Made by a program: the position numbers and the translations under genes. From Candidatus Thorarchaeota archaeon (GTDB lineage Archaea; Asgardarchaeota; Thorarchaeia; Thorarchaeales; Thorarchaeaceae), in the NCBI GenBank assembly GCA_016840855.1, contig JAEORO010000055.1:1-15992 (forward strand): a stretch of 15,992 bases of DNA, in the 5' to 3' direction. Below the pieces are notes generated by a model. The model saw only the letters and a list, made by a program, of their open reading frames with translations, searched no databases and had not been told where the DNA came from. How positions within the stretch are numbered: position 1 is the stretch's first letter; every line of letters begins with the position of its first letter. Below, piece after piece: positions 182 through 14,366 of this stretch.

Positions 182-229
182 AAGTAGAAACTGACAGGAT
201 TTGGTGTCCATTGTGTTCGTTTCATTTTT
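182..229 (+). repeat. Degenerate, internally deleted copy (copy 0) of the dispersed intergenic repeat
   Basis: aagtagaaactgacaggatttggtg matches copy 3 (aagtagaggctgacggggtcgggtg) at 19/25 positions. It then runs directly into cattgt...tttcattttt, like the repeat 3' tail. The central hairpin is missing. Confidence 0.5.
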
Positions 230-305
230 ATCCGGAGGATTTTTTTCTAATCATCATTACAGTCATTGTATGCAAGAAGTGAGAATTGATATTCATTACT
301 AAGAC

Positions 306-1448: not shown

Positions 1449-1553
1449 AGCTTACTCTATCCTCGAGCAGAGAGAGGTGCAGGCTATGGGCGGGGTTGGC
1501 TAACGGGACCTTTCCCTTTGCTGTTCACTGTTGAGCACCCTTTCTCTTTTGCA
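1449..1553 (+). repeat. Dispersed structured repeat, copy 1 (long variant)
   Basis: agcttactctatcctcgagcagagagaggtgcaggctatgggcggggttggctaacgggacctttccctttgctgttcactgttgagcaccctttctcttttgca. About 13 differences over ~105 bp against copy 2 by manual alignment. Confidence 0.92.
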
Positions 1554-1633
1554 CAAGTCAGCTATCTAAGAGGCGATACTTACGGAGTAGTATATTTTGG
1601 TGAGTCATTCTGCTGCTCACATTTAGTCTTGGT

Positions 1634-2200
1634 TCAGCAGCCAGAAGTATTGTAAGAGATTATGACATCTCGGAAGTGACCTCTTTTGGTATCGCTTTCA
1701 ACTTGAGTTGCATGCCATTGGCGTAAACCTATAATCTTGGCAACAATCCTTCCTGCAAAGAAGCCAATAACAAAGCCATACAGTACAACCATGCCCAAAG
1801 TCAAGGATAATCCACCGCTTCCACCGAGTGCGATAGTGAGAAGCGCCCCACCAGGTGCAGCCAGAATTACAAATGGTGGGGCATATAGAAGCAACGCACG
1901 TGTGAAAGAAACACGAACTGATCCCTCTGTTCTTACTCGCCTATTAATAAACAAAGTCAGAATTATGTTCGTCACAAAGCCAAAAAAGCTGAGTGCTAAG
2001 TAGATCAGAGCCATACTCACATTTTCAAGTCCAGGAACCCAGTTTGATTCTTGTGGAGCATAAAACGTGTAAAAACCGACAAAGAACAAACTAATCAAAG
2101 TCACTGACGCCTCCTCGAAATTAAGCAGGTAATATCCTAGGAAACGTGTGAACTCGTATGTTTTCTGGACCGATTGTTGCTCTTCCGTGGATATGGTCAT
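1634..2200 (-). CDS. Hypothetical integral membrane protein (about 4 TM helices)
   Basis: 188 aa ORF with four long hydrophobic segments, 22 bp downstream of and co-oriented with the 308 aa gene. Confidence 0.75.
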   Translation of the reverse strand: MTISTEEQQSVQKTYEFTRFLGYYLLNFEEASVTLISLFFVGFYTFYAPQESNWVPGLENVSMALIYLALSFFGFVTNIILTLFINRRVRTEGSVRVSFTRALLLYAPPFVILAAPGGALLTIALGGSGGLSLTLGMVVLYGFVIGFFAGRIVAKIIGLRQWHATQVESDTKRGHFRDVIISYNTSGC

Positions 2201-2222
2201 GAGTTTCTCACACTGCTGTTGA

Positions 2223-3149
2223 TTACACAGAACCTTCTAAAGAGTATGATCGAATCCAGAGATCCTTCCATCCTCCGTAGGAGCATGATACCCATAAGTC
2301 TGGCCAGAAATATGAGTAGGAAAATCCATCACCTTGTTCAGCTTGGAGTACCGCACCAAGCCACCATACCAAGAAGAATTGATAAATCCCCAAGACCAGT
2401 AAAGTAGCTGATATGACAGCAGCTGCAAAAACAGCTAGTACTGCCGCAGCAGGTATAAAACCAGCGAAAAGTGCGAAACCCCCTGTAATAGAAAACAAGA
2501 TTACTCTCCACAAGCTTGCTTCATCTATAGCTGCATTAACCTCGCTTTGTGAGTGATGAGTTAGCATATAGCGCGATCCACCAGCTCTGTAATACCAACC
2601 GAGGTTCCACTGCTCTGGATGATACAGAGAGTAGTAGTAGTTGTCCGGATGTTCGTAGTCGACCGATCGTTGTGTGCTGCCAGGCGCCTTAATCATCTTG
2701 AATCCATTCCACCAATAGTACGTGAATGTTCCCCAATCCGATGAAGGTATAGCCTGTTTAACTGGTTTAATAACATCCTCCGGGGTGTCCTTTAACATCA
2801 CCACGTCTGATAGCTTGTCCACCATTTCTGAGGTTTCACTGGTCAACACGTTATTATTTTCATCAAATGTAAGATACTCCTGAGTATATCTTACCATCAA
2901 CTCAGCTTGTTCAATGTATGTTTCCCCTGAAACAACAATTTTCATCTTTGTTCCTTCGTATTCAAAGGAACATTCTCTCTCAAAAGGTCCAATCTTAGGA
3001 CTATGTCCTTCCAATATTGGAACTTTGGAGAAAGCCTCTATTCGTTCTGATTCAGAAGCAACTGGTATTGGGGCTATAAACGCTGCAAACATTAGCAAAA
3101 CCAATACAGTGACTACTGGAATCCTAACTATATTACGAAATCCCATCAA
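2223..3149 (-). CDS. Hypothetical secreted protein with C-terminal hydrophobic Ala/Gly-rich hairpin
   Basis: 308 aa. N-terminal basic plus hydrophobic signal-like segment (RNIVRIPVVTVLVLLMFAAFIAPIPVA), Tyr/Trp-rich middle region, and a ~50 aa hydrophobic stretch near the C-terminus. GAGGG RBS upstream. Confidence 0.78.
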   Translation of the reverse strand: MMGFRNIVRIPVVTVLVLLMFAAFIAPIPVASESERIEAFSKVPILEGHSPKIGPFERECSFEYEGTKMKIVVSGETYIEQAELMVRYTQEYLTFDENNNVLTSETSEMVDKLSDVVMLKDTPEDVIKPVKQAIPSSDWGTFTYYWWNGFKMIKAPGSTQRSVDYEHPDNYYYSLYHPEQWNLGWYYRAGGSRYMLTHHSQSEVNAAIDEASLWRVILFSITGGFALFAGFIPAAAVLAVFAAAVISATLLVLGIYQFFLVWWLGAVLQAEQGDGFSYSYFWPDLWVSCSYGGWKDLWIRSYSLEGSV

Positions 3150-3222
3150 AGTCCCTCATCATATATTAACACCAAATGGATTTAAAGACAATGGTTGGAT
3201 TTTCACGATTAAATTGTGAAAC

Positions 3223-3327
3223 AGCTTGCTCTGCTTTCGAGCAGAGAGAGGTGCAGGCTGACGAGCGGGGTTGGCTAACGGGACCTTTCCCTAGCCGCTC
3301 ACTGTTGAGCACCCTTCCTCTTTTGCA
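3223..3327 (+). repeat. Dispersed structured repeat, copy 2 (long variant)
   Basis: Direct repeat of copy 1. Stems: ctctgct-ttcg-agcagag, gagcgg/ccgctc, ggcta/tagcc, ggga-cctt-tccc, ggtgc/gcacc. Confidence 0.92.
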
Positions 3328-3472
3328 GTTGTAATTTGCTTGTTCGAGATAAAACTAGAATCACTTGGTCATGTCTGTCCATGTTCAAATTTATAATGCT
3401 AATTCCTTCCTCATACTTTCAATATAGAATTGACCCACAAGGGTAGAGGTGGTTTAACTGCAATATCTAAAA

Positions 3473-4462
3473 TTGAGTGGTGCATACTATGATATTGGTA
3501 AAAATTTTGGAAAATTCAGGAGGGGTTTCGATTACTACGCGACTCCAGATGAGAGGCGGCTTGAATTAGCCCTCAAGTGTGAGGATTTGTTGAAGGAACA
3601 TGCAAGCGATCTACACGATGAACTCTTGGGATTCTCCACGGGAATCAGACTGCCTTATGAATCAGTTCTAGCAAAGCAGCTTCTCCCTCACGAGATATCT
3701 GGTTGCAATCTCTTCTTTGTGAAAGGTGAATATACCGATAATGGACATCCAATCTTTGTCAGACACATGGACTGGATTGAGGATGACCTGCAACGTCTTA
3801 CCATGCTTGAAACAAGACAACTAGGAAAGAATGTTGCTCTTGGTCTTAGTTTTGCTGAATTGGGCTGCTTTGACGGAATAAACACAACAGGTCTGGCAGT
3901 AGGCACCGCATCAGTTCCATTCTTCATGGGTAAACAAAGTGTAGGTCTTCTCGACAGATACGTTGCCAGATGGGCTCTTGATAACTTCTCCTCAGTTGAG
4001 GAATCAGTAGACTATCTATATTCTGTTCCTCATGCTGAAGCAATCATTTTTCTTGTCGCAGATAGGAAAGGGACATCAGCCCGTATAGAGGTTTCACCCA
4101 CCAAGGTCCGAGCTGAAGTGTCAGATGAAGGAATTAATGTTGCTAACAACTTCTTCATTCTACAGGATATGCGTGAGCTAGATAGTATGCCTAAGGATGA
4201 TAGGTCTTGGACATATCATAGGAGAATCCATGATTGGTTCCTAAATACAAAACACAAGATTGGACTGAAACAGGTCAAGGAGATATGCAGGAATCATGAA
4301 ACGGGTATCTGTGAGCACCTGCAAGATCCTCCAGGAGGTACGATTTATTCTTGGATTTCAGAACTAGGAAGCGGCACCATCCATCTTTCAGTTGGATATC
4401 CATGTTCTAATCACTATGTTTCTTACGATATAGTTGAATCATCTCAGATGGGTAAGAAGTAG
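3473..4462 (+). CDS. C45 family autoproteolytic acyltransferase/hydrolase (Ntn hydrolase, AAT-like)
   Basis: SG.YYDIG N-terminus, G|C self-cleavage site (SGCNLFFV...G.PIFVRHMDW), DGINTTGLAVG, FLVAD..G...RIE and VANNF. The true start may be CTG at 3458, behind GAGGTGG at 3446-3452. Confidence 0.85.
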   Translation: MSGAYYDIGKNFGKFRRGFDYYATPDERRLELALKCEDLLKEHASDLHDELLGFSTGIRLPYESVLAKQLLPHEISGCNLFFVKGEYTDNGHPIFVRHMDWIEDDLQRLTMLETRQLGKNVALGLSFAELGCFDGINTTGLAVGTASVPFFMGKQSVGLLDRYVARWALDNFSSVEESVDYLYSVPHAEAIIFLVADRKGTSARIEVSPTKVRAEVSDEGINVANNFFILQDMRELDSMPKDDRSWTYHRRIHDWFLNTKHKIGLKQVKEICRNHETGICEHLQDPPGGTIYSWISELGSGTIHLSVGYPCSNHYVSYDIVESSQMGKK

Positions 4463-4530
4463 AGGCTGACGGGGTCGGGTGAACAGGGAACTTTCCCCTT
4501 TCTGACATTGTCGAACACCCCCACCATTTT
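4453..4530 (+). repeat. Dispersed structured repeat, copy 3 (overlaps stop codon of the C45 gene)
   Basis: taagaagtagaggctgacggggtcgggtgaacagggaactttcccctttctgacattgtcgaacacccccaccatttt. The first 44 bp match copy 4 at 43 positions. Confidence 0.92.
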
Positions 4531-4625
4531 GTTTCTTATTTCTTCTCTATTCTTGATTATTTGGTACAGTCTCAAGTCAGTACTAACTTTATGCATGATA
4601 TAGCTTCAAGAAATCATACAAAAAC

Positions 4626-5012
4626 TTGGAGTATCGAATTATGATAGAAGAAATGGAACAGATTCGAGAAACGGTAAATACCTACCTGGAAGCAGTGACC
4701 CACAAGGACTGGAACAAGTTTCAAGAATCATGGCATTCTGAAGCAAGGATGAATTTTGTAAGAGATGGGGAGGTACATTCTGTTTCTCGTTCATTCTGGA
4801 AAGATTGGTGTGAAAACCCGTTAGACCCTGAAGAGAAGAGAACCAGTATGATTACGTCGATTGATGTAACTGGTAACATCGCTGCGGCCAAAGTAGTTGT
4901 ACTCCGAGAAACACCTATTGAAAGGATGCTACTCACAGACTATCTGACTCTTCTTCAAGAAGATAATAACTGGCTAATTATTAGCAAATCTTACACATCC
5001 AGCATGGTCTAG
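4626..5012 (+). CDS. NTF2-like / putative lumazine-binding (Lumazine_bd_2) protein
   Basis: Pattern I...V..Y.EA....D...F...WH.EA.M, IDV.GNIAAAKV, TDYLTLL....W.IISK.Y. The start may be ATG at 4641. Confidence 0.85.
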   Translation: MEYRIMIEEMEQIRETVNTYLEAVTHKDWNKFQESWHSEARMNFVRDGEVHSVSRSFWKDWCENPLDPEEKRTSMITSIDVTGNIAAAKVVVLRETPIERMLLTDYLTLLQEDNNWLIISKSYTSSMV

Positions 5013-5049
5013 AACAACTAAGTAAAGTCACATAGTACACTGCTTCTAA

Positions 5050-5787
5050 TCAGATCTCTTCAGCAATACTCTCTTCAAGAGGAGCTGGATGTGTTCCTCT
5101 TTTTCCGGAGAAATGATGCCAGGTGTGAAGATGAGGCATTAAAGCTTGCATAATCTTACTCTCTGCTTTTCTTAGGTGTTCTTGGAATGTTGTTCTTCTG
5201 ACTCCTATATTATTTGATATTGTCTTGACATCAGCAGCTCTTGGTATTCTGTAGTACCCTTGAGAATGTGCAGTGAGAACCGCATCTGTCTGTAGATCTG
5301 TTAGGCTCTCAAACAATGATTCTGTTCGTATTGTCATTGACCCTCCAGAGAACCCACTGAACGGAACCTTGCGAAGAATCCATGGCATGTAACTGCAATC
5401 CTGAAACTCTTCTATTAGCTTGGTTATGTCTTTCTGCCTGAAAGCAATCACTCTGTGATATTCCCATCCGCCGTAGTAACTAATAGGGGCTAGGTGAAGA
5501 ATATCAAGTTTTGATGGACAATCTTCAATGATGCTTTCCACTCCACAAGGAATGGATTTAGAGATGAGATGACTCTGATACTCATCTCCGACATGATTGA
5601 TAACACCATCAAGTGAGCATGCATCCTTAATGGAATCTGAATTTTCAGTTCCATCTCGAGAAAAGACTTCGATGATTTCGTGATTCTTAATCCTCCACTT
5701 GTGGACTCCAGCCAAGGGATTTCTAATTGTGAAATCTGCCAATCTGCAATTGTGTCTTATCTTGAATTCTAATTCGAATATTGCCAT
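5050..5787 (-). CDS. Archaeal HTH_10 (bacterio-opsin activator-type HTH) transcriptional regulator
   Basis: C-terminal LTD.Q..A...A...GYY.IPR......I....G....TF.EHLRKAE.KI is the HTH_10 signature. GGTGA RBS upstream on the minus strand. Confidence 0.9.
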   Translation of the reverse strand: MAIFELEFKIRHNCRLADFTIRNPLAGVHKWRIKNHEIIEVFSRDGTENSDSIKDACSLDGVINHVGDEYQSHLISKSIPCGVESIIEDCPSKLDILHLAPISYYGGWEYHRVIAFRQKDITKLIEEFQDCSYMPWILRKVPFSGFSGGSMTIRTESLFESLTDLQTDAVLTAHSQGYYRIPRAADVKTISNNIGVRRTTFQEHLRKAESKIMQALMPHLHTWHHFSGKRGTHPAPLEESIAEEI

Positions 5788-5810
5788 GAATAACCCTCAC
5801 CGAATTGAGT

Positions 5811-5849
5811 AATGTATTGAGTACTGTCATATGACAGTATCTATACATT
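5811..5849. promoter_or_regulatory. Palindromic operator candidate upstream of the HTH_10 gene
   Basis: Perfect 18 bp palindrome TACTGTCATATGACAGTA (5822-5839) with outer arms AATGTAT/ATACATT. It lies between a minus-strand TATAA (about 5854-5858) and the start codon at 5787. Confidence 0.65.
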
Positions 5850-5884
5850 GGCTTATAGATTGAAAATCGTCTGATTCATTGTTC

Positions 5885-5961
5885 TAAGAAGTAGAGGTTG
5901 ACGGGGTCGGGTGAACAGGGAACTTTCCTTCTCTGACACTGTTGAGCACCCTCTCACTTTT
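5885..5961 (+). repeat. Dispersed structured repeat, copy 4
   Basis: taagaagtagaggttgacggggtcgggtgaacagggaactttccttctctgacactgttgagcaccctctcactttt. Confidence 0.92.
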
Positions 5962-6067
5962 CACCTATCTAGTCATGTAAGTGGATTTTCTGTTTGCTAT
6001 CTTGTGGGATTCTATCTAATTTACTACCTGGATAGAATTCCATAGAATCTTTCGTTATCTTCTACAC

Positions 6068-7267
6068 TCACTTCACACCTTCACCAGATGTCCTTACTTT
6101 TTTCAACCACAAGTATATGACAACAATGGCTGCTAATCCTCCAGTGAGAAAGATTAGTTCTAGACTTATGGTGAGCTCACCATTGTTTCCAATCTCCAGA
6201 ATGACGAATCCATTCTCTTGATCCGTCATATAGATTAGATTACCAATCACTTCAACCCGGTTAGGCTTGCCGTTGTCAAAGTAACGGGTCACTTCAGTAA
6301 GTTCAGCTGGATTGTGAATATCTAGTAGTAGTAACCCTAATTCAAGGTCGCAAAGAAAGGCAAGACTACGCTCAGTGTCAATGTGAACAGAAAAAGCGTT
6401 CAAACTCTCATTGAATTCACCTATGACTTCGATGTTTGACAGATTGCTAATGCTCAATACCTTAAAGCTCTTACCCCAATAACTTAGAAAAGCCAAATCT
6501 CCAACGATTTCAAGATCGCCTAAGTCCGCATCGCTAGTCGATGGTCCTATGTACTGCACAAGTTGTGTTGGATTAGTGAGGTTGCTAACATCAAAAACAG
6601 TGAACCCTGCGTAACTTGTTGTCACAAACGCCAAATTATCCACAACTTCAATATCCGTTGCATCTCCAATTGTTATGAAACTGCTCAGTAGTGCAGGTGT
6701 GGAAGGGTCAGTCACATTTACAATCGTCAGTTTATCGCCACTGCCTTGGAATCCGTTGGCGACAAAAGCCACATTTCCTACCACTTCTACATCCCATGCA
6801 TAATCACCAGTGAACTGACTCAGAGTAACAGGACTAGATATGTTTTCCAAGTCAATTATTTTGAGTCCACCTTGACCTTCACCTATGTACATTAGATCAT
6901 CACGCATATCGAACTGGTGGGCATAACCGCTTGAGGAAGAAGGTATGTTTGCCATATTCGTTGGCTCTCGAGGGTCACTTATACCAAAGACCTTTACTCC
7001 GGAGTAACCACAACTAACATAGGCAATATCATCATCGGTGTCGACCCATACATCATAAGCATCACCAGTTTCAACCTGTCCGATTTTCATTAGTTCTATT
7101 TGATTCGCATATGTTTTAGGAAGGAAACAACATAGTATTGAGTTTAGAATGAAGACTAAAATCAAGACACGAGTAGTTTTGTTGAGGCCCCTCGTTAATT
7201 CACTCACTCTCCTACTTGACTTGTGTCTATGATTGCTCTGATTTTGAAGGCGTAAAGACAGCTTCAA
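6068..7267 (-). CDS. LVIVD-repeat (beta-propeller) membrane-anchored surface protein
   Basis: Repeats of A.DV.V.G..A(Y/F)V.....G(L/F)..(I/F)D(I/V)S.P..P, an N-terminal hydrophobic segment and a C-terminal TM anchor followed by KK. The true start is probably ~20 codons downstream of the ORF start. Confidence 0.85.
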   Translation of the reverse strand: MKLSLRLQNQSNHRHKSSRRVSELTRGLNKTTRVLILVFILNSILCCFLPKTYANQIELMKIGQVETGDAYDVWVDTDDDIAYVSCGYSGVKVFGISDPREPTNMANIPSSSSGYAHQFDMRDDLMYIGEGQGGLKIIDLENISSPVTLSQFTGDYAWDVEVVGNVAFVANGFQGSGDKLTIVNVTDPSTPALLSSFITIGDATDIEVVDNLAFVTTSYAGFTVFDVSNLTNPTQLVQYIGPSTSDADLGDLEIVGDLAFLSYWGKSFKVLSISNLSNIEVIGEFNESLNAFSVHIDTERSLAFLCDLELGLLLLDIHNPAELTEVTRYFDNGKPNRVEVIGNLIYMTDQENGFVILEIGNNGELTISLELIFLTGGLAAIVVIYLWLKKVRTSGEGVK

Positions 7268-7367
7268 GCATCATTGAATTAAGTAGTCCATTTAATTAAA
7301 AACACCTTTCAAAGCAAGTTATTTGAATTATTGAAAACAATCAATCACCTGAAAACGATGTGTATAT

Positions 7368-7429
7368 GGCTGGATCGAGTTAACAGGGAACTTTCCTCTT
7401 TCTGAAACTATTGAGCACTCTTTTCATTT
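7368..7429 (+). repeat. Dispersed structured repeat, copy 5
   Basis: ggctggatcgagttaacagggaactttcctctttctgaaactattgagcactcttttcattt. Shares aacagggaactttcc and ttgagcac with copy 4. Confidence 0.85.
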
Positions 7430-7437
7430 CAAATCAG

Positions 7438-9813
7438 TCAATTCACAGATTTCCGAAATCTCCCAATAATTTCATCTTGAACTTCTTTTCCCAAGTCCAC
7501 GTAATATGCACTGTAGCCCGCTACTCTTACAAGTATATTCCTGTATGAGTGGGGATTTGCTTGTGCTTTAAGAAGAACTTCTGGGTCAATCATGTTGAAT
7601 TGAATGTGCATTCCACCAAGTTCTACGTAGGAGGTCAGAATGGAAACAAGAGATTCCAACCCACTTTCCCCCTCTACAAAACTAGGATCCAGCGCGAGCG
7701 TGAAGGCAACTCCATTGGGATAGAGTGTATAATCAATACTTGTGACTGAATTAAGAACTGCAGTCAGACCCTTTGAAGGTGCTGATATTGCAGGTGAAAC
7801 ACCATTACTTAGAGGAGTTGATGGCAGTCGCCCACTAGGCAAAGCACCTGTGAACAGACCAAATGCTATGTGCGTGGTCACAGAGTACATGCCAGAGATG
7901 AATGATCCACCTCTGATGTTCCTATGTTTTTCTACCTCTTCACTATATATGCGCGCCACGAGCTGAGCATAGTCGTCCACAAATTTCTCATCATTACCAT
8001 ACTTAGGCGCCTTATTTTGCATCAATTGCCTGAGTGGTTCATGATTTTCGAAACCATCTCTCAGAGCAGTTATGAGCTCATTCATACTTACTTTCTTTTC
8101 CCTGAAGACAATCTGGTCTATTGCTGCGAGAGAGTCAGCAACATCAGCTAAACCAACTCCCTGAACCCCGGTGAAGTTATACCTTGCAGAACCAGTTGTG
8201 ATGTCTCGACCGTTTTCAAAACAGTCTTCTACGCAAAGTGAGAGTAGAGGGGTTGGTATCATCTCCATATTCAATTGTTCAAAAGAGTTTGAGCCCTCTG
8301 TCATGAGTCCCACCAAATACGAAACCTGTTTTCGAAATGCTTGAATAACTTCATCCATTGAGTGCCACCTTGTAGGGTCACCTGTCTTGAGACCAAGTTC
8401 TGCTCCCAGTAGTAGAGTTTCACCGTTATTCAACGCAAGCTCTAAGCACATTGCGAGATTGAAGAGGGCGGCATCTGATGAGGTGAAACTGCAACCAAAT
8501 GGAGCTAACTCCACGCACCCAACAGTAGCGTAGTTTCTTGCCTCATCCTTTGGTACTCCTTGTCTTTCCCATGATTTGACAATTGTTTCATCGCTGAAGA
8601 TTGCAATATTATTAGCCCCTGAGGCAATAACTGCCGCAATCTCTTTCATGAGATGTGACGGACTTTTTTGATGAATCCTGACATGGACATTGGGTAGGGG
8701 AAGTCCAACATTCTTTGTTGCTTCTAGGATCAAGTAGGTCATGTCGTTTGTTGCATCAAATCCTTCTTTATCGACTCCTCCAATTGTTACTGCTTGGGTT
8801 GTCAATAATCCCTCAAAATACATCCCAGTAAAGTTATCAAATGCTGGGACGTGCTCATTTGTCTTAAACCAGAGCATTTCAACAAGCTCAAGTGCTTCTT
8901 CCCTCGTCAGGTTTCCAGATTCAATATCATTTTTATAGAATGGTTGAAGATACTGGTCAATCCTTCCCATAGAGATTGCTTGACCATCATAAGTTTCGAT
9001 GGTGAGAGCAAGATGAGTGAATCTAATGAACTGAATGGCTTCATGAAGGTTTCTTGGTGGTTTCGCGGGAACCCATTGACATATCGCAGCAATTCTTTCT
9101 AGCTCTTCCTTTCTCTTGATATCACTCTCCTCCTTAGCCAACTTCGCTGCTCGCTCAGAATATCGATTTGCAAATTGGATTATTGCATTGGCCACGATTC
9201 TTGCGGCCTTGTAGAAGTTTATTTTGTCGAAAAACTCCGTATCTTTTACTTCACCGTACTCTCCAATTCGTTTCTCTGCCAATTTACTAAATTCTTCAAA
9301 GCCCATCGAAAGAAGCATCGGGTAATTTATACTCAGATGGCCAAACCCAGCGACCTCTGTGAGAATAAAAACTGAGCCAGCGTACAAAGTTTCTAATATC
9401 TTCTCAGGAGTCTTCTTATCCGCCTGTGCTATCAAGGACATATCAGTCCAATATGAAGCAATTTCATCTTGTACAGCTCTGATGTCTTCTTGTGTGACTT
9501 CTATCACTCTGCAATCTCTTGCGCTTAGCTCTTCAAGCTCTGGAACTATTCTTGAACCATGAGCTTCTGGATACACCATTGCACCCCGAATCTTATCCGA
9601 AACACTACCCACAACCAGCTCATCGGAGAATATCTTCACAGGGATGCCTTTCAGTATGTTTGCAAGAGACTTTGCTTGCCTGATTATTTGAGGCTCTCCC
9701 TCAGTTGATCTCATTGAATCAGTATGCAACCTGGTCCTTTCAATACTCAAATGTGTCTTAGATTCAAGAATACGATCCCGCATTATTTGACTTCTAGAGG
9801 TCACGTCTCTCAC
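7438..9813 (-). CDS. Glycyl radical enzyme, PFL2/PflD (dehydratase/eliminase-like) class
   Basis: 791 aa. Gly-radical motif RVAGYS, single-Cys loop GCVEL, SMGRIDQYL.PFY..D, APKYGND, GALPSGR and HIQFN. Confidence 0.93.
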   Translation of the reverse strand: MRDVTSRSQIMRDRILESKTHLSIERTRLHTDSMRSTEGEPQIIRQAKSLANILKGIPVKIFSDELVVGSVSDKIRGAMVYPEAHGSRIVPELEELSARDCRVIEVTQEDIRAVQDEIASYWTDMSLIAQADKKTPEKILETLYAGSVFILTEVAGFGHLSINYPMLLSMGFEEFSKLAEKRIGEYGEVKDTEFFDKINFYKAARIVANAIIQFANRYSERAAKLAKEESDIKRKEELERIAAICQWVPAKPPRNLHEAIQFIRFTHLALTIETYDGQAISMGRIDQYLQPFYKNDIESGNLTREEALELVEMLWFKTNEHVPAFDNFTGMYFEGLLTTQAVTIGGVDKEGFDATNDMTYLILEATKNVGLPLPNVHVRIHQKSPSHLMKEIAAVIASGANNIAIFSDETIVKSWERQGVPKDEARNYATVGCVELAPFGCSFTSSDAALFNLAMCLELALNNGETLLLGAELGLKTGDPTRWHSMDEVIQAFRKQVSYLVGLMTEGSNSFEQLNMEMIPTPLLSLCVEDCFENGRDITTGSARYNFTGVQGVGLADVADSLAAIDQIVFREKKVSMNELITALRDGFENHEPLRQLMQNKAPKYGNDEKFVDDYAQLVARIYSEEVEKHRNIRGGSFISGMYSVTTHIAFGLFTGALPSGRLPSTPLSNGVSPAISAPSKGLTAVLNSVTSIDYTLYPNGVAFTLALDPSFVEGESGLESLVSILTSYVELGGMHIQFNMIDPEVLLKAQANPHSYRNILVRVAGYSAYYVDLGKEVQDEIIGRFRKSVN

Positions 9814-10197
9814 TCCTAATCTCGTTCAACACTCATCCATATATCTCATGCCAATCTGTCTGCTATTTCATTTAAGGAACTCGGACTCATAATGGAATCC
9901 ATAGATGGGTACGAAGTAGAGAGCAGAAATATGAAGAAATGCTGGCTCATCTATCAGATTAACTGTTTCTTATTGAACATCCTCTCATTTGTCTTTGATT
10001 TATTCTCTTTAATTAAGCGTATCATAGAGTCTGTTTTCATTTTTTCTCGAAATGTCTTTCATGAGTTTCTTCATATCATCAATTACCTCATTGAACTCTC
10101 TAATCTTTCAATTATTGAATACATAACACTCCCTCGAACGGTCATAAGTAAGTGTGATATTGATGAAACTGTCACCTGGAATATAACAAGTGAAGGA

Positions 10198-10785
10198 TCA
10201 AACTAACCGTGGAATATCACCTTTCGCAAGAACACCATAGTGTTGAATGAAGTCATTTTTTGTGAAGTCCATGATGGCAATATCATCTCGTTGTCCGTTG
10301 ATATATGCCCCTTCTCTAATGAATCCCACCATTTGAAATCCAATCTTCTCATAGAAATTAATTGCATGTTGATTGAATTTGTAGACAAAGAGATAGATAT
10401 TGTGCAATCCTAGAATATTGAAGGTGAAATCGAGTAGAACCAATATCGCATCTTTTCCATAACCCTTTCGTCTATTGTTTTTGTCAAAGATTGCTAGGTT
10501 ATCAATCATACCTGTGCCGCTGATCCAGTTGATGTTAGAAACATCAATGAATCCCACAATTCTCCCTGTTTCTTTTTCTTCAATACCGAATGTGAAGATA
10601 TATCGACCTGCAAATCCTTCATTTCTGGATGAAATGAATTCTTGAACCTCCTTGTATGTCTTTGGGAAAGGATTTGGGAAATATTGTCTAAGTTCGAAGT
10701 TATTCCACTGTTCAAAGATAACATCTGCATCTTCAATCTCTAAGCGCCTTAGTCGTATTAATTCTCCTTGGTACATGGATATCAT
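10198..10785 (-). CDS. GNAT N-acetyltransferase, RimJ/RimL family
   Basis: GE.IRLR.LE..D, R.KGYGKDA...LLDF.F..LGLH.I.L.V...N..AI.FYEKIGF...G..RE. Confidence 0.92.
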   Translation of the reverse strand: MISMYQGELIRLRRLEIEDADVIFEQWNNFELRQYFPNPFPKTYKEVQEFISSRNEGFAGRYIFTFGIEEKETGRIVGFIDVSNINWISGTGMIDNLAIFDKNNRRKGYGKDAILVLLDFTFNILGLHNIYLFVYKFNQHAINFYEKIGFQMVGFIREGAYINGQRDDIAIMDFTKNDFIQHYGVLAKGDIPRLV

Positions 10786-10926
10786 GTATTTTGATTCCTC
10801 CCTAATTTTAACTATTTAGAACTACGCGAGTGGATATTGGCGATAGATCTCACTTTATCAAGAATATATGTTCGAAAACTCAAATCTAGAGTCTTCTATC
10901 ATACATCTCAAACACATAATGGGTAT

Positions 10927-10992
10927 AGGCTGACGGGGCAGGTATTCGGGGAACTTACTCCTTCCTCACCTGTTGAGTCACCCTTTCATTTT
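10927..10992 (+). repeat. Dispersed structured repeat, copy 6
   Basis: aggctgacggggcaggtattcggggaacttactccttcctcacctgttgagtcaccctttcatttt. Confidence 0.85.
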
Positions 10993-11008
10993 GATCTCAC
11001 AATATTCT

Positions 11009-11815
11009 CTACTTAGTGGCTTTTACAATAAAGAACCTCTGAGGTAGATTTGGTTTGGATTTGATTCTAATCTTGTATCGTTTAAAATAACCCTCAATTG
11101 GTACGACACCTGAAACAACGTCTAATGTAAATCCATAGGTTTCCAAAATTGTCGCAAACTCTTCTCCTGTGAAGGGGGTATGCGTTTCCTGCATCTCTTC
11201 CTGTTCGAGGGGTGTATCAAATGCCCATAATTTGGTGATGAACTCATAGAGATCGCGCATGGAAATCCTGACTCGCTCATCATCAAGAACTACGAAGCTG
11301 AACGGACGGTATTCAAACGAATTCTGAAAACGTTCAAGCTGTAGAAGCATCTTGTCATTGAAACTGACATCTACCAATTCATCACCAGGATTTTGATGGT
11401 CCATTATAACGAATGCGCCACCTTCACGAAGAAGTGTGCCAATCTCCTCTATTGTGCTCAACAGAACGTCCCTACCGGAAAAACACAACACCTCACTAAG
11501 AGATTGTACAGCCACTACTGCATCGAAAGAACCTGATTTGAAAGGAAATTTAGGTATTAGCGCTTGAATGCGAGAAACAAGCTGCTCAATTAGATCCTTC
11601 AACTGATGAGTTAACATATACTTGGAGAGATCGAGTTCAACTACTTGGGTTGAAGACATCCGTTGATTGATCAATGTTGTAAGAGCACCAACCCCACAGC
11701 CAGCATCAAGAACCAATGATGCATCTCGCGGAATTAGTGCTGCTATCTCATGAAGATAACCTTGGCGAGATCTATGGCTCATTACCCGAGCCATCTCCTT
11801 TTCTGAAGATGTCAT
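11009..11815 (-). CDS. Class I SAM-dependent methyltransferase
   Basis: Motif I VLDAGCGVG, LDLS..ML, PF..GSFDAVV, LREGG.FVI.D. Confidence 0.88.
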   Translation of the reverse strand: MTSSEKEMARVMSHRSRQGYLHEIAALIPRDASLVLDAGCGVGALTTLINQRMSSTQVVELDLSKYMLTHQLKDLIEQLVSRIQALIPKFPFKSGSFDAVVAVQSLSEVLCFSGRDVLLSTIEEIGTLLREGGAFVIMDHQNPGDELVDVSFNDKMLLQLERFQNSFEYRPFSFVVLDDERVRISMRDLYEFITKLWAFDTPLEQEEMQETHTPFTGEEFATILETYGFTLDVVSGVVPIEGYFKRYKIRIKSKPNLPQRFFIVKATK

Positions 11816-11893
11816 TCTAAAAACTGTGTTATTGGTTGTTTGATATGAATATATGTAAGCAAGTAAGAATCAAATTGAATATCTATAGAGAAT

Positions 11894-11969
11894 AAGTTGA
11901 AGCTGACGGGGTCAGATGAACAAAGAACTTCTCCGTTCCTCGAACTGTTAAACGATTTCTCCATCTTTT
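11894..11969 (+). repeat. Dispersed structured repeat, copy 7 (diverged)
   Basis: aagttgaagctgacggggtcagatgaacaaagaacttctccgttcctcgaactgttaaacgatttctccatctttt. The 5' half aligns ungapped with copies 3 and 4. Confidence 0.8.
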
Positions 11970-12102
11970 ATTAAAAGAACTCTTTGTTAAGATAAGCTCT
12001 GAGAAATTCTCTATGGACCAAGAATTGTTTGTAGCGTCATAGTAGTTTCTCGCTGGTGTGGTTTCACACCCTCTCGACTGAGAAGTGTTACGCTTCCTCA
12101 GA

Positions 12103-12201
12103 TCAATGGTTTTCATATCCTGTCGGTATCTTTTCGAGAATCGGACGGGGTTCTTCGCTTGAATTGGCAATGTAAGAATCAACGTCTTTTGGCTTTGATA
12201 T
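12103..12201 (-). pseudogene. Truncated DUF1801/YdhG-like gene remnant with non-ATG (ATA) first codon
   Basis: AGGAG RBS (12211-12215), then ATA-SKPKDVDSYIANSSEEPRPILEKI, typical of the DUF1801 N-terminus (..VD.YIA......R..LE.(L/I)R). Similarity is then lost and a stop follows at 12103. Confidence 0.65.
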
Positions 12202-12220
12202 TTTATTTTTCTCCTATTGA

Positions 12221-12808
12221 TTAATCATTTAATCCCTTTCCATTGAGAATTTGCTGCATGCATTTTTCAACCCTTGACTCCCGAGTTTTGGATTGTTTGG
12301 GTGCAGAAAAATAAAGAATGTATGCTCTTTGCCGCCCCGGGGTCAAGGCATCAAAAGCAGTCTTCAAGGCTGGGTTTTCATCTAATTTAGTCTGAAATTC
12401 TTCAGGAATTGTGTATTCTGTAGTCTTTTTGAAATCCACTTTCAAGCCGGCTTTTTCCACTTCAATGGCTTCATGAATATAGGCTTTCAAGACGGGTTCC
12501 ATCTCAATTATTTCTCGAGCACTTGTAAACCGAATCTGGCGCCCAGCCTGTGTATTCTCCGTTTGTCTGATTAGAATGCCCTTGGTGTCTTTTAATAAGA
12601 CACCTTTGACGAACAGAATCGCACAGTATTCTTTGAATCCGTGTATCAAAACCACGTTACTTTTCTGATACGTATAACAAGGAACACCCCACTTCAATTC
12701 CTCGGTCAGCCCACATTCGAGAATGATCATTCTCAATTTCTTAAATTCTTCCTGCCATTTTTTGGCTTTGCTTAGAAATGCATCAACCTTAGGATTCATT
12801 ATATTCAT
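12221..12808 (-). CDS. ydeI: YdeI family protein (DUF1801 plus YdeI/OmpD-associated domain)
   Basis: MNPKVD.FL..AKKWQEE..KLR.I.L.C.LTEELKWG.PCY, QTEN.QA.RQIRF, AF.ALTPGRQRAY..YFS.PKQSKTR.SRVEK....IL.GKGLND closely follow bacterial YdeI. Confidence 0.92.
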   Translation of the reverse strand: MNIMNPKVDAFLSKAKKWQEEFKKLRMIILECGLTEELKWGVPCYTYQKSNVVLIHGFKEYCAILFVKGVLLKDTKGILIRQTENTQAGRQIRFTSAREIIEMEPVLKAYIHEAIEVEKAGLKVDFKKTTEYTIPEEFQTKLDENPALKTAFDALTPGRQRAYILYFSAPKQSKTRESRVEKCMQQILNGKGLND

Positions 12809-12930
12809 TTATTGTTCCTCTGAAATAGAGTGAGCTTATATCTGCCTACAGTTTCTTTTCTTCTTTAACAAAGTATCCGTAGCGGAAGCTGCGAATGGAA
12901 TACCTCCTATGCTTTATCAGTTCTTAAACT

Positions 12931-13009
12931 GGTAAGAAATATGGGCTGATAGGGTGGGGTAAACAGGGGACTTGTCCTAGCCTATATTGTTGAGCACCCT
13001 TTTCATTTT
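12931..13009 (+). repeat. Dispersed structured repeat, copy 8
   Basis: ggtaagaaatatgggctgatagggtggggtaaacaggggacttgtcctagcctatattgttgagcacccttttcatttt. Confidence 0.88.
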
Positions 13010-13255
13010 ATATATCGTAATTCTATAACATGTGCGTCCATTTTTAATCCATGAATATTCTTTTGATTCTTAATGATCCTGTATTCGGTATAACAAACCA
13101 AGTTTAGCAATATCACTGAAAATGAGAATCCTGATGCAATAGTGGATATTTTCATAATAAGTGATACAGTTTTCTGTGTTGTTTAGAATAGTGAGTTGTA
13201 GAGTAAACGTTTCCTACACAAACGATTTTATAAGCTCAAGATATTAACTATAGTT

Positions 13256-13843
13256 ATGTCAAAGTCGTCATTTACTGCAGTCAAAAAAGAGTTGTCTCCA
13301 GAACAACGTGAAGAACTACTCAGAGCACTGAAAATCCGTTTTGAGGAAAGCATGAACCGACATAAAGGTCTTGAATGGGCTAAAGTGCAAGCAAGGCTGG
13401 AAGCCAATACTGAAAAATTGTGGTCGCTTGATGAAATGGAAAGATCTGGCGGTGAACCTGATGTTGTCGATCATGACAAAAAGACGGGCGAATACATTTT
13501 TTATGATTGTTCAGCGCAAAGTCCCAAAGGCCGCAGAAATGTTTGTTACGACCTTATAGGACAGGAAGAGAGGGAAAAGAAAGGGATTCATCCAAGAGGC
13601 AACGCTATTGATATGGCAGCTGCCATGGGTATTGATCTTTTAACAGAAGAACAATATCGAGCGCTACAGAAGCTTGGAGAATTCGATACGACGACATCTA
13701 GTTGGGTGAAAACACCTTCTGATATTAGAAAACTTGGTGGCGCCATCTTTATGGATCGCCGCTATGACACTGTCTTCGTGTATCATAACAGTGCGCCTTC
13801 TTTCTATAGTGCTAGAGCCTTCCGTGGCTCGCTAAGGGTCTAA
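13256..13843 (+). CDS. DUF4256 family protein
   Basis: LK.RFE..M.RH.GLEW.KV...L, L.EME..GGEPDVV, F.DCSA.SPKGRR..CYD, LQKLGEFD..TSSW.KTP..IR.LGGAIF.DRRY..VFVYHN.A.S(F/Y)Y..R.FRG.LRV. Confidence 0.88.
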   Translation: MSKSSFTAVKKELSPEQREELLRALKIRFEESMNRHKGLEWAKVQARLEANTEKLWSLDEMERSGGEPDVVDHDKKTGEYIFYDCSAQSPKGRRNVCYDLIGQEEREKKGIHPRGNAIDMAAAMGIDLLTEEQYRALQKLGEFDTTTSSWVKTPSDIRKLGGAIFMDRRYDTVFVYHNSAPSFYSARAFRGSLRV

Positions 13844-13921
13844 ACTATAATGCAGCTGGTTTGATAACAATTGAAGAGTGAAAGAATTCCATATAGAGAT
13901 ATGACGGGGTGGGAATAATCA

Positions 13922-14076: not shown

Positions 14077-14248
14077 ACAGACCAAGAAACAGCAGAGTGT
14101 ATTCTATTCAATAGTGGTGTTTGTTTCATCCTATGAGCTCAAGAATTTCATCCAGAATCTTGTGCCTTTACTTCTCCTTTATGTTCGGGAATGACCAGTC
14201 TGCATGTGGTTAATAATAACAGCTCAAGGAAATCTTTGTCATATTAAA

Positions 14249-14293
14249 AACCGGATCTTTTCATGCAACTCATTGTCGAGTGCTTTTTCTTTT
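14249..14293 (+). repeat. Degenerate 3' half of the dispersed repeat (copy 9)
   Basis: aaccggatcttttcatgcaactcattgtcgagtgctttttctttt aligns to copy 2 aacgggacctttccctagccgctcactgttgagcacccttcctctttt. Confidence 0.5.
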
Positions 14294-14366
14294 GATACTC
14301 TTTTTTTTAAAAGATGAATTTATTAGCCGGCAATTGCCTAGCTTGTTAATGTGAGGTGTCGCGTGC

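Follow-up and report, generated by a model that had tools for sequence, protein, structure and literature searches.

Integrative elements and 'additive' islands accrete in tandem at the 3′ ends of tRNA and tmRNA genes, and archaeal pre-16S rRNA is processed from a stem formed by leader and trailer as inverted repeats, with the splicing endonuclease cutting at a bulge-helix-bulge motif. Concerning gene-capture systems, archaeal integrons are enriched in Asgard archaea according to the available part of Ghaly et al. 2022 (PMC9668308), and WHO homing elements have been described at the FBA1 gene of Torulaspora and Lachancea yeasts in the available part of Coughlan et al. 2020 (PMC7282813). Other Asgard elements are the subject of PMC8813620, in whose available part trailer-bounded cassette arrays are not among the elements described. 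Our literature searches found no description of such arrays, and by that search the locus studied here, a 16S-anchored, integron-like row of cassettes without an integrase, appears new to the literature.

The window, i.e., the whole stretch of DNA analyzed (15,992 nt), is an entire contig (C230) of a Candidatus Thorarchaeota assembly of 3.36 Mb that is 92% complete. It contains eight strong copies of a repeat, every one on the + strand, plus three decayed copies. The 105-nt stretch 3223–3327, in which an earlier note made from the sequence alone had recognized a strand-specific fold, is one of the eight well-kept copies. In our judgment, it is probable that the repeat is a duplicated 3′ trailer of 16S rRNA and that its copies are the joints of swappable cassettes, exchanged most simply by homologous recombination.

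Compared with the archaeal pre-16S stem, the likeness is that the first copy behind the 16S gene pairs, by prediction, with the leader, with changes matched between genera, and that the trailer strand bears a conserved bulge of 4–5 nt; the difference is that here the trailer half recurs downstream among protein genes, in up to 12 or more copies. With the islands at tRNA and tmRNA genes, the locus shares the direct repeats, which duplicate a conserved RNA gene's 3′ end and are stacked one way with variable cargo between them, but the target is the 16S rRNA flank, the units are of one to three genes without an integrase, and the breakpoints are not fixed. The resemblance to the integrons and CALINs covered by the available text of PMC9668308 lies in the structured repeats of one orientation between diverse, shuffled, often single-gene cassettes, in a cargo where toxin-antitoxin and GNAT genes are common, and in the lack of an integrase beside the array. 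Unlike integrons, the repeat would be here a piece of the rRNA operon and fails the tests for attC sites, the array is anchored at the 16S gene and not at intI/attI, and the gene orientation is only 60:40. As in the WHO elements, insofar as the available text of PMC7282813 describes them, insertions recur behind one conserved gene, with a trail of old 3′ ends between inserts; however, each WHO unit encodes its homing endonuclease, whereas here nucleases are rare and the target is an RNA gene.

The features of the window are collected in Table 1. The eight strong copies are spaced by about 1.0–3.6 kb. The copy under study, c2, consists in this order of AGCTTG, a hairpin named B (CTCTGCT-TTCG-AGCAGAG; fold energy −15.8 kcal/mol, z −3.7), the main fold, the box GTTGAGC and a T-rich tail. 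Hairpin B is the element with which copies of the long type begin, and its stems vary widely, with TTCG (16) or CTCG (3) loops; the UUCG loop is exceptionally stable in RNA. Two + strand ORFs of 84 and 52 codons (1401–1655 and 3176–3334) cross c1 and c2 and are most likely spurious. In the decayed copy between c5 and c6, the GATGGGTACGAAGTAGAG linker and an ATTGAAC...TCATTT tail are still legible, and the corresponding joint holds an intact copy in relatives (L050, L072). The joint of the decayed last copy is likewise occupied by an intact copy in two relatives (G021 = L074 and G009 = L049). The stretch directly upstream of c8 is 91% identical over 45 nt to the 16S 3′ end of G012, and metagenome contigs pass into it from true 16S sequence (loose ends at 12866).

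Table 1. Repeat copies and associated features of the window.
Feature	Coordinates	Strand	Remarks
c0, decayed short copy	187–235	+	Behind the end of a + strand ORF; 5′ CTGAC box and T-rich tail kept; weak nhmmer match 188–210, E 1.5
c1, long type	1449–1553, core 1480–1553	+	Remnant of upstream hairpin, main fold, T-rich tail; family D4; 34.2 bits
c2, stretch under study, long type	3205–3327, core 3254–3327	+	34.6 bits
c3	4440–4533, core 4462–4533	+	89.3 bits; immediately after the stop codon of a + strand acyltransferase-like gene (3473–4462)
c4	5872–5964, core 5894–5964	+	83.5 bits
c5	7362–7433	+	69.3 bits
Decayed copy	9900–9995	+	Between the glycyl-radical-enzyme and GNAT cassettes; nhmmer E 4.9
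c6	10904–10995, core 10926–10995	+	63.2 bits
c7	11877–11970, core 11899–11970	+	63.3 bits
Worn copy of the last 45 nt of 16S rRNA (helix 45 and CCTCCT end)	12865–12909	+	Directly upstream of c8
c8	12910–13012, core 12942–13012	+	Remnant of trailer hairpin A, main fold, tail; 71.3 bits
Decayed last copy	14240–14295	+	Only CATTGTCGAG and T-rich tail left; precedes corrinoid methyltransferase genes
Cassettes between copies	1554–12864	either	One to three unrelated accessory genes each; Pfam scan

Elsewhere in the genome of the window the repeat was found on C54 (four copies), C238 (one copy) and C234 (a weak match). As it is confined to three or four contigs in all, it is an array repeat and not a dispersed one. 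An M24 peptidase gene truncated at the 3′ end of C54 (L001, 8354–9334) probably resumes at positions 1–179 of the window; if this gene is continuous, C54 and C230 would belong to a single array with at least 13 copies, as far as gene content can tell.

The covariance model of the repeat matched all 27 genomes of the genus, 33 of the 36 in the family, and one of the 24 other genomes in the phylum sample, the last one weakly. A total of 198 copies were mapped by nhmmer in the fetched loci and, with the exception of contig C81 of G012, all copies of a contig have a single orientation. A 19-nt core pattern was found in 16 stretches of the genome collection, for which about four chance matches are expected by our estimate: ten lie in MAGs titled Thorarchaeota or Promethearchaeota and six in unrelated bacteria. 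The same pattern had no match in viral contigs.

Concerning the origin of the repeat, the 1.7 kb upstream of the first copy are 94–96% identical among the relatives G012, G017 and G006, against about 76% for the adjoining peptidase gene. This stretch holds no long ORF, and Rfam assigns it to SSU_rRNA_archaea (L048, 871–2432, 1246 bits). In six relatives of two genera (G012, G017, G006, G029, G015 and G014), the 16S gene is followed after about 100 nt by the first copy of the array, which has the same strand; the window's own genome has no assembled 16S gene, and the adjacency of array and 16S is seen in relatives only. One plan is common to the native trailers of eight more genomes of the family: the end of 16S is followed by a hairpin A, often by hairpin B, by the fold region ending in CTGTTGAGC, by ACCC and by a T-rich run. 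Extra copies of the trailer occur downstream in G082, G077 and G030, and none occur within the 6–16 kb examined in G028, G070 and G080. A motif like the 16S 3′ end was found within 230 nt upstream of 31 of 194 copies; about six of these motifs are true 16S ends and about 25 precede internal copies (some 13% of the approximately 188 internal ones), where they are worn relics of the last 25–48 nt of 16S, exemplified in the window by 12865–12909.

Two cases are contrary to this simple arrangement. In G035 an array with 16S-end fragments is on a contig other than that of the 16S gene, and in G012 there are two oppositely oriented copies at a distance of 12 kb upstream of 16S. This last pair (L065, contig C81, at about 53898 and 54442, − strand) brackets one small ORF, faces away from the main array, and looks like a second mini-array beside PolX.

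Some peculiarities of the 16S genes of the family were also observed. Several of them span 2.3–2.4 kb and not about 1.5 kb (G035:C2 589938–592348, G080:C10 124412–126689 and G014:C73 13812–16104), which suggests that they contain insertions or introns. At the 3′ end of 16S, an extra hairpin of about 30–40 nt is present between GGATGGA and TCACCTCCT in several genera (G029, G015, G014, G028, G080 and G082), and G070 has a longer insertion, of about 90 nt, inside helix 45.

By prediction, the preferred partner of the native trailer is the 16S leader and not the trailer itself. The energy of the predicted leader-trailer cofold beat the sum of the separate folds in 12 of 12 genomes (3/3 and 9/9), by 18–44 kcal/mol; in these predictions the whole fold region pairs with the leader, and hairpins A and B remain local. 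The predicted pairing of the first copy with the leader extends over about 70–200 nt, and the helix segments that vary between genera have matching changes in the leader, e.g., pairs of the GGTGGATAGC/CGATAGGTGA type. The duplex energy strongly beat that of shuffled trailers in six of nine genera, but not in G028, G030 and G029, the trailers of which carry a large internal hairpin. Seven of the eight array copies of G017 are predicted to pair with the leader at −63.5 to −70.5 kcal/mol, as compared to −36 to −44 kcal/mol with shuffled sequences and −20 to −26 kcal/mol for self-folding. The AAC that the earlier note had described as unpaired is the 4–5-nt bulge on the trailer strand of the predicted helix; a few pairs beyond it the leader strand has a bulge of 1–3 nt, with a helix of 4–6 bp between both, in minimum-energy predictions that deviate from the canonical 3-4-3 form of the bulge-helix-bulge. 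The position of these bulges is presumably that where archaeal 16S stems carry the bulge-helix-bulge site. Because the trailer is quasi-palindromic, it can also fold on itself.

It was this self-folding that the earlier note had proposed, with compensatory changes, as the conserved feature of the repeat. The middle stems that it listed are present in the sequence, namely GAGCGG/CCGCTC in copy 2, GGGCGG/CTGTTC in copy 1, GTCGG/CTGAC in copies 3 and 4, and ATAGG/CCTAT in copy 8. The apical GGGA-NNNN-TCCC and the AAC can be found as well, together with the T-rich tail, which is among the best-kept parts of the repeat. In the + strand fold, only one mismatch lies between the outer stem and the middle stem, and the 5′ arm has 5–6 extra bases (GTGAAC). 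A covariance model was built with the structure of that note, and 107 copies from 24 sources were aligned to it, the alignment leaning therefore towards the structure. In these 107 copies, 85.4% of the cells were pairing, against 41–63% with slid partners. The cells changed on both sides numbered 51, versus 24 ± 4 in shuffles, and the covariation score was 0.223, versus 0.184, neither value being reached by any of 500 shuffles, in a test that overstates significance because the copies are related by descent. In the ten closest copies, covariation was equal to the shuffle mean (0.193 in both cases; 240/500). RNAalifold, which had been suggested as a check, did not recover the proposed fold on ten copies; with six and with ten copies it gave weak, differing consensus folds of −4.6 and −3.1 kcal/mol. 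Given that double changes are more numerous than in shuffles, an intramolecular fold of the repeat's own may also exist.

The strand bias claimed for the pairing was borne out by the 107 copies: 85.6% of the cells were paired on the + strand versus 68.4% on the − strand, with the + strand pairing better in 95 copies, equally in nine and worse in three. The same is true of the G-T wobbles that hold only on the + strand, as 311 G-T cells were counted versus 73 A-C or C-A cells. The folding energies gave a divided answer, the + strand being the more stable one in 145 of 196 copies with RNA parameters but in only 104 of 196 with DNA parameters. The corresponding folding z values of the 196 copies were −1.07 (+ strand) and −0.52 (− strand) with RNA parameters, and −0.42 and −0.29, respectively, with DNA parameters. 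The fold energy is near chance: the pairing pattern holds, while a strong free hairpin does not, least of all in DNA. Selection on a single-stranded form of the + strand, as the earlier note had it, fits these results, although the molecule concerned would be the pre-16S rRNA and not a separate RNA. The free-standing small RNA gene that the note had offered as one possibility has to be abandoned, since the repeat is to all appearances a copy of the 16S 3′ trailer, with its T-rich tail where the rRNA transcript should end; a scan of the window with Rfam 15 gave no matches at E values up to 1. The G-U pairs, the UUCG loops and the T-rich tail fit a pre-rRNA origin.

The cargo of the window comprises, according to a Pfam scan, two membrane or unknown genes, RibD_C, an AAT-family acyltransferase, SnoaL-like and HTH_10 genes, LVIVD, a PFL-like glycyl radical enzyme, GNAT, a methyltransferase and DUF1801/OmdA, and a DUF4256 gene follows c8. 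Across the fetched loci, the arrays carry ParE, PIN/VapB and HicA modules, GNATs, methyltransferases, transporters and redox enzymes; the 314 array ORFs sort into 207 clusters, a cargo typical of accessory genes. With respect to the repeat, 186 array ORFs are on the same strand and 125 on the opposite one, and the upstream neighbor of a copy is on the strand of the repeat in 122 of 187 cases and the other way in 65. Complete arrays are flanked by conserved housekeeping genes (Peptidase_M1, a class I tRNA synthetase and PolX). The PFL-like glycyl radical enzyme is a full-length cassette gene (7438–9813, − strand), and no activating enzyme gene lies beside it in the window. On C54, a TnpB gene (OrfB_IS605 plus Cas12f-like TNB; L001, 2872–4095, − strand) is the one cassette between two copies, and no TnpA was found in the window's genome. 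The DUF4256 gene (13351–13884) reached a summed contig depth of 90–280 in four metagenomes, versus about 2–15 for most other bins, and the neighboring DUF1801 stretch (12283–12816) was also raised, to 8–114; since many variant contigs cover the DUF4256 gene, it is common to many members of the community.

The cassettes of the window recur in relatives with changed order and neighbors. Among all copies, 189 pairs share an abutting flank (144 the left one and 49 the right one), and four of them share both. Cassettes are reshuffled between genomes, with the joints inside the repeats. In single pairs, the flank homology ends anywhere from −50 to +35 around the repeat, and the curves of identity averaged over 21 left-only and over 16 right-only pairs intersect at about +15 to +30, so that no fixed crossover point emerged. 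No RNA run holding the sequence was among 20 listed sequencing runs. In contigs of four metagenome DNA runs, joints between different copies were seen, e.g., from 4503 to 12988 (two runs of two studies) and from 3328 to 4482 (two runs), which were not counted as evidence because they had only 22–23 nt on one side. No excised circle or empty site was seen in our material.

No known recombinase accompanies the arrays. PF00589, PF01797 and PF00239 had no match in the window's genome (92% complete); among 28 genomes of the genus they were found in nine, one and eight, respectively, and none of these genes was on an array contig. At the 15 loci fetched for recombinase or transposase genes, none had the repeat beside it. 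There was no integrase among the 107 of 207 cluster representatives of cassette proteins that were scanned, and part of the remaining 100 was covered by other scans. Nineteen of the 28 genomes showed no tyrosine recombinase of any kind, the Xer type included, which is unusual for archaea, in assemblies that are incomplete.

The following mechanism can be proposed. The trailer would be the 3′ strand of a long leader-trailer stem flanking 16S in the pre-rRNA, and would carry local hairpins, one of them often UUCG-looped, and a T-rich stretch where the rRNA transcript should stop. Its copies, some of which keep the last 25–48 nt of 16S, would be direct repeats between small groups of accessory genes, in an array that in relatives begins right behind the real 16S gene. 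The G-U pairs, the compensatory changes and the bias towards the + strand may have been shaped on the working pre-rRNA trailer and then passed on to its duplicates. These would be, within the array, stretches of homology where cassettes are cut out, inserted and swapped by recombination anywhere within 100–200 bp of trailer homology. Ordinary homologous recombination, with Campbell-type entry and the loss of circles with one trailer copy, is favored because breakpoints scatter over the repeat and no recombinase accompanies the arrays; an enzyme acting in trans, or a nuclease-driven homing step, may alternatively move the cassettes.

Other explanations have to be weighed against the trailer origin and homologous exchange. 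The earlier note had drawn an analogy to attC sites, and the array could be a CALIN, a canonical integron cassette array lacking an integrase, whose repeats fold as attC sites in ssDNA and are served by IntI from elsewhere. In agreement with this, unrelated accessory and toxin-antitoxin cassettes are arranged in one orientation 1–3.5 kb apart, and the array has at least two sites less than 4 kb apart in one orientation, as CALINs are defined in the available text of PMC9668308, which also reports integrons and CALINs in Asgard archaea. The 3′ box GTTGAGC fits GTTRRRY, and better folding goes with the strand that has more G-T pairs, a property also reported of attC bottom strands in the available part of PMC5027507. 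The analogy breaks down in the details: the 5′ box is GGCTGAC, and the AAC triplet of the definition in that part of PMC5027507 is absent from most copies, its first A being G in 84 of 107 copies and A in 14; no unpaired central spacer of 5–6 nt exists between the boxes on either arm; and the extra bases are on the would-be AAC arm, whereas attC sites have them on the opposite one (same part of PMC5027507). Moreover, the ssDNA fold is at chance (mean −5.96 kcal/mol, z −0.42; 196 copies, DNA parameters), conservation reaches about 30–75 nt upstream, about 15 nt past the GTT box and into 16S, breakpoints scatter from −50 to +35, and ORF orientation is mixed (186 versus 125). No IntI was found, PF00589 being absent from the window's genome and, where present (9/28), never on the array contig. 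In the available supplementary material of PMC9668308, Data S1 has only two Thorarchaeia genomes with two attCs each, and neither of two core motifs of the repeat is present in the tables. A CALIN is therefore very improbable. The analogy to HUH targets, also drawn in the earlier note, fared still worse, as no Y1 transposase accompanies the arrays. REP-like or IS200/IS605-type hairpins, handled as ssDNA by a Y1 (HUH) transposase, would account for an imperfect palindrome with GTAG-like letters before many copies and for the one TnpB gene within an array; but Y1_Tnp (PF01797) is found in one of 28 genomes of the genus and not in that of the window, the copies are clustered in one-orientation arrays and not dispersed, and the DNA fold is at chance, so that this reading is close to refuted and hardly deserves any weight. 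So, of the recombination-substrate idea of the earlier note, what stood is position, as the copies coincide exactly with the places of cassette exchange between genomes, and what failed is the kinship to attC or HUH targets.

A different possibility is homing in the manner of WHO elements: an endonuclease would cut the naive 16S 3′ end or trailer, and repair from the donor would install a new 3′ end, trailer and cargo, the old 16S 3′ end being pushed downstream as a relic. Internal copies do carry 16S 3′-end relics that differ in length, which is the trace that WHO elements leave at FBA1 according to the available text of PMC7282813; an HNH endonuclease gene lies beside a 16S-end relic in the array of G017, and a TnpB gene lies in the array of C54. 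Nevertheless, nuclease genes are rare, as Pfam scans of the array ORFs gave only that HNH gene and that TnpB gene; G017, G012 and G006 have unrelated genes in the first position after 16S; and a 16S fragment is kept by only about 25 of about 188 internal copies. All of this makes homing unlikely. Slightly less doubtful, yet still improbable, is that each copy works as RNA in the array, either as a one-way terminator or insulator between cassettes or as an alternative partner of the 16S leader in transcripts that read through from the rRNA promoter. This would be consistent with the good preservation of the T-rich tail, with the strong predicted complementarity to the leader that most copies keep, and with the leaning of the upstream neighbors (122/187) and array ORFs (186/311) to the strand of the repeat. 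Against it, three of the 11 copies of the window are decayed, 65 of the 187 upstream neighbors face the opposite way, and the retained complementarity may merely reflect recent copying.

With a duplicated 16S trailer as the preferred origin of the repeat, the strand-specific, RNA-like pairing is best read as an inheritance from pre-rRNA, and the interesting part is the 16S-anchored, integron-like array without an integrase. Its repeats could be mistaken for attC sites or for new small RNAs. Several contigs of relatives end within a few hundred bases past the 16S gene, and this may help to explain the frequent failure of 16S in assembly and binning, although rRNA genes also break assemblies by themselves. 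A bolder idea, to which we assign little probability, is that the 16S flank of Thorarchaeota is a new kind of gene-capture platform without an integrase, in which the spare trailers are active as RNA. Cassettes would enter and leave via trailer homology or via an undescribed enzyme that reads the leader-trailer-like structure, and in transcripts that start at the rRNA promoter and read through the array, the one 16S leader would be able to pair with any of the trailers downstream. If this were true, cassette expression or RNA processing would be coupled to the rRNA operon. The 16S-trailer site is a natural candidate for gene insertion once Asgard genetics exists. In the closest archaeal relatives of eukaryotes, accessory genes would have a common landing pad in the most conserved gene of the cell, and this offers a concrete and testable route for the exchange of genes between species without an element-borne integrase.
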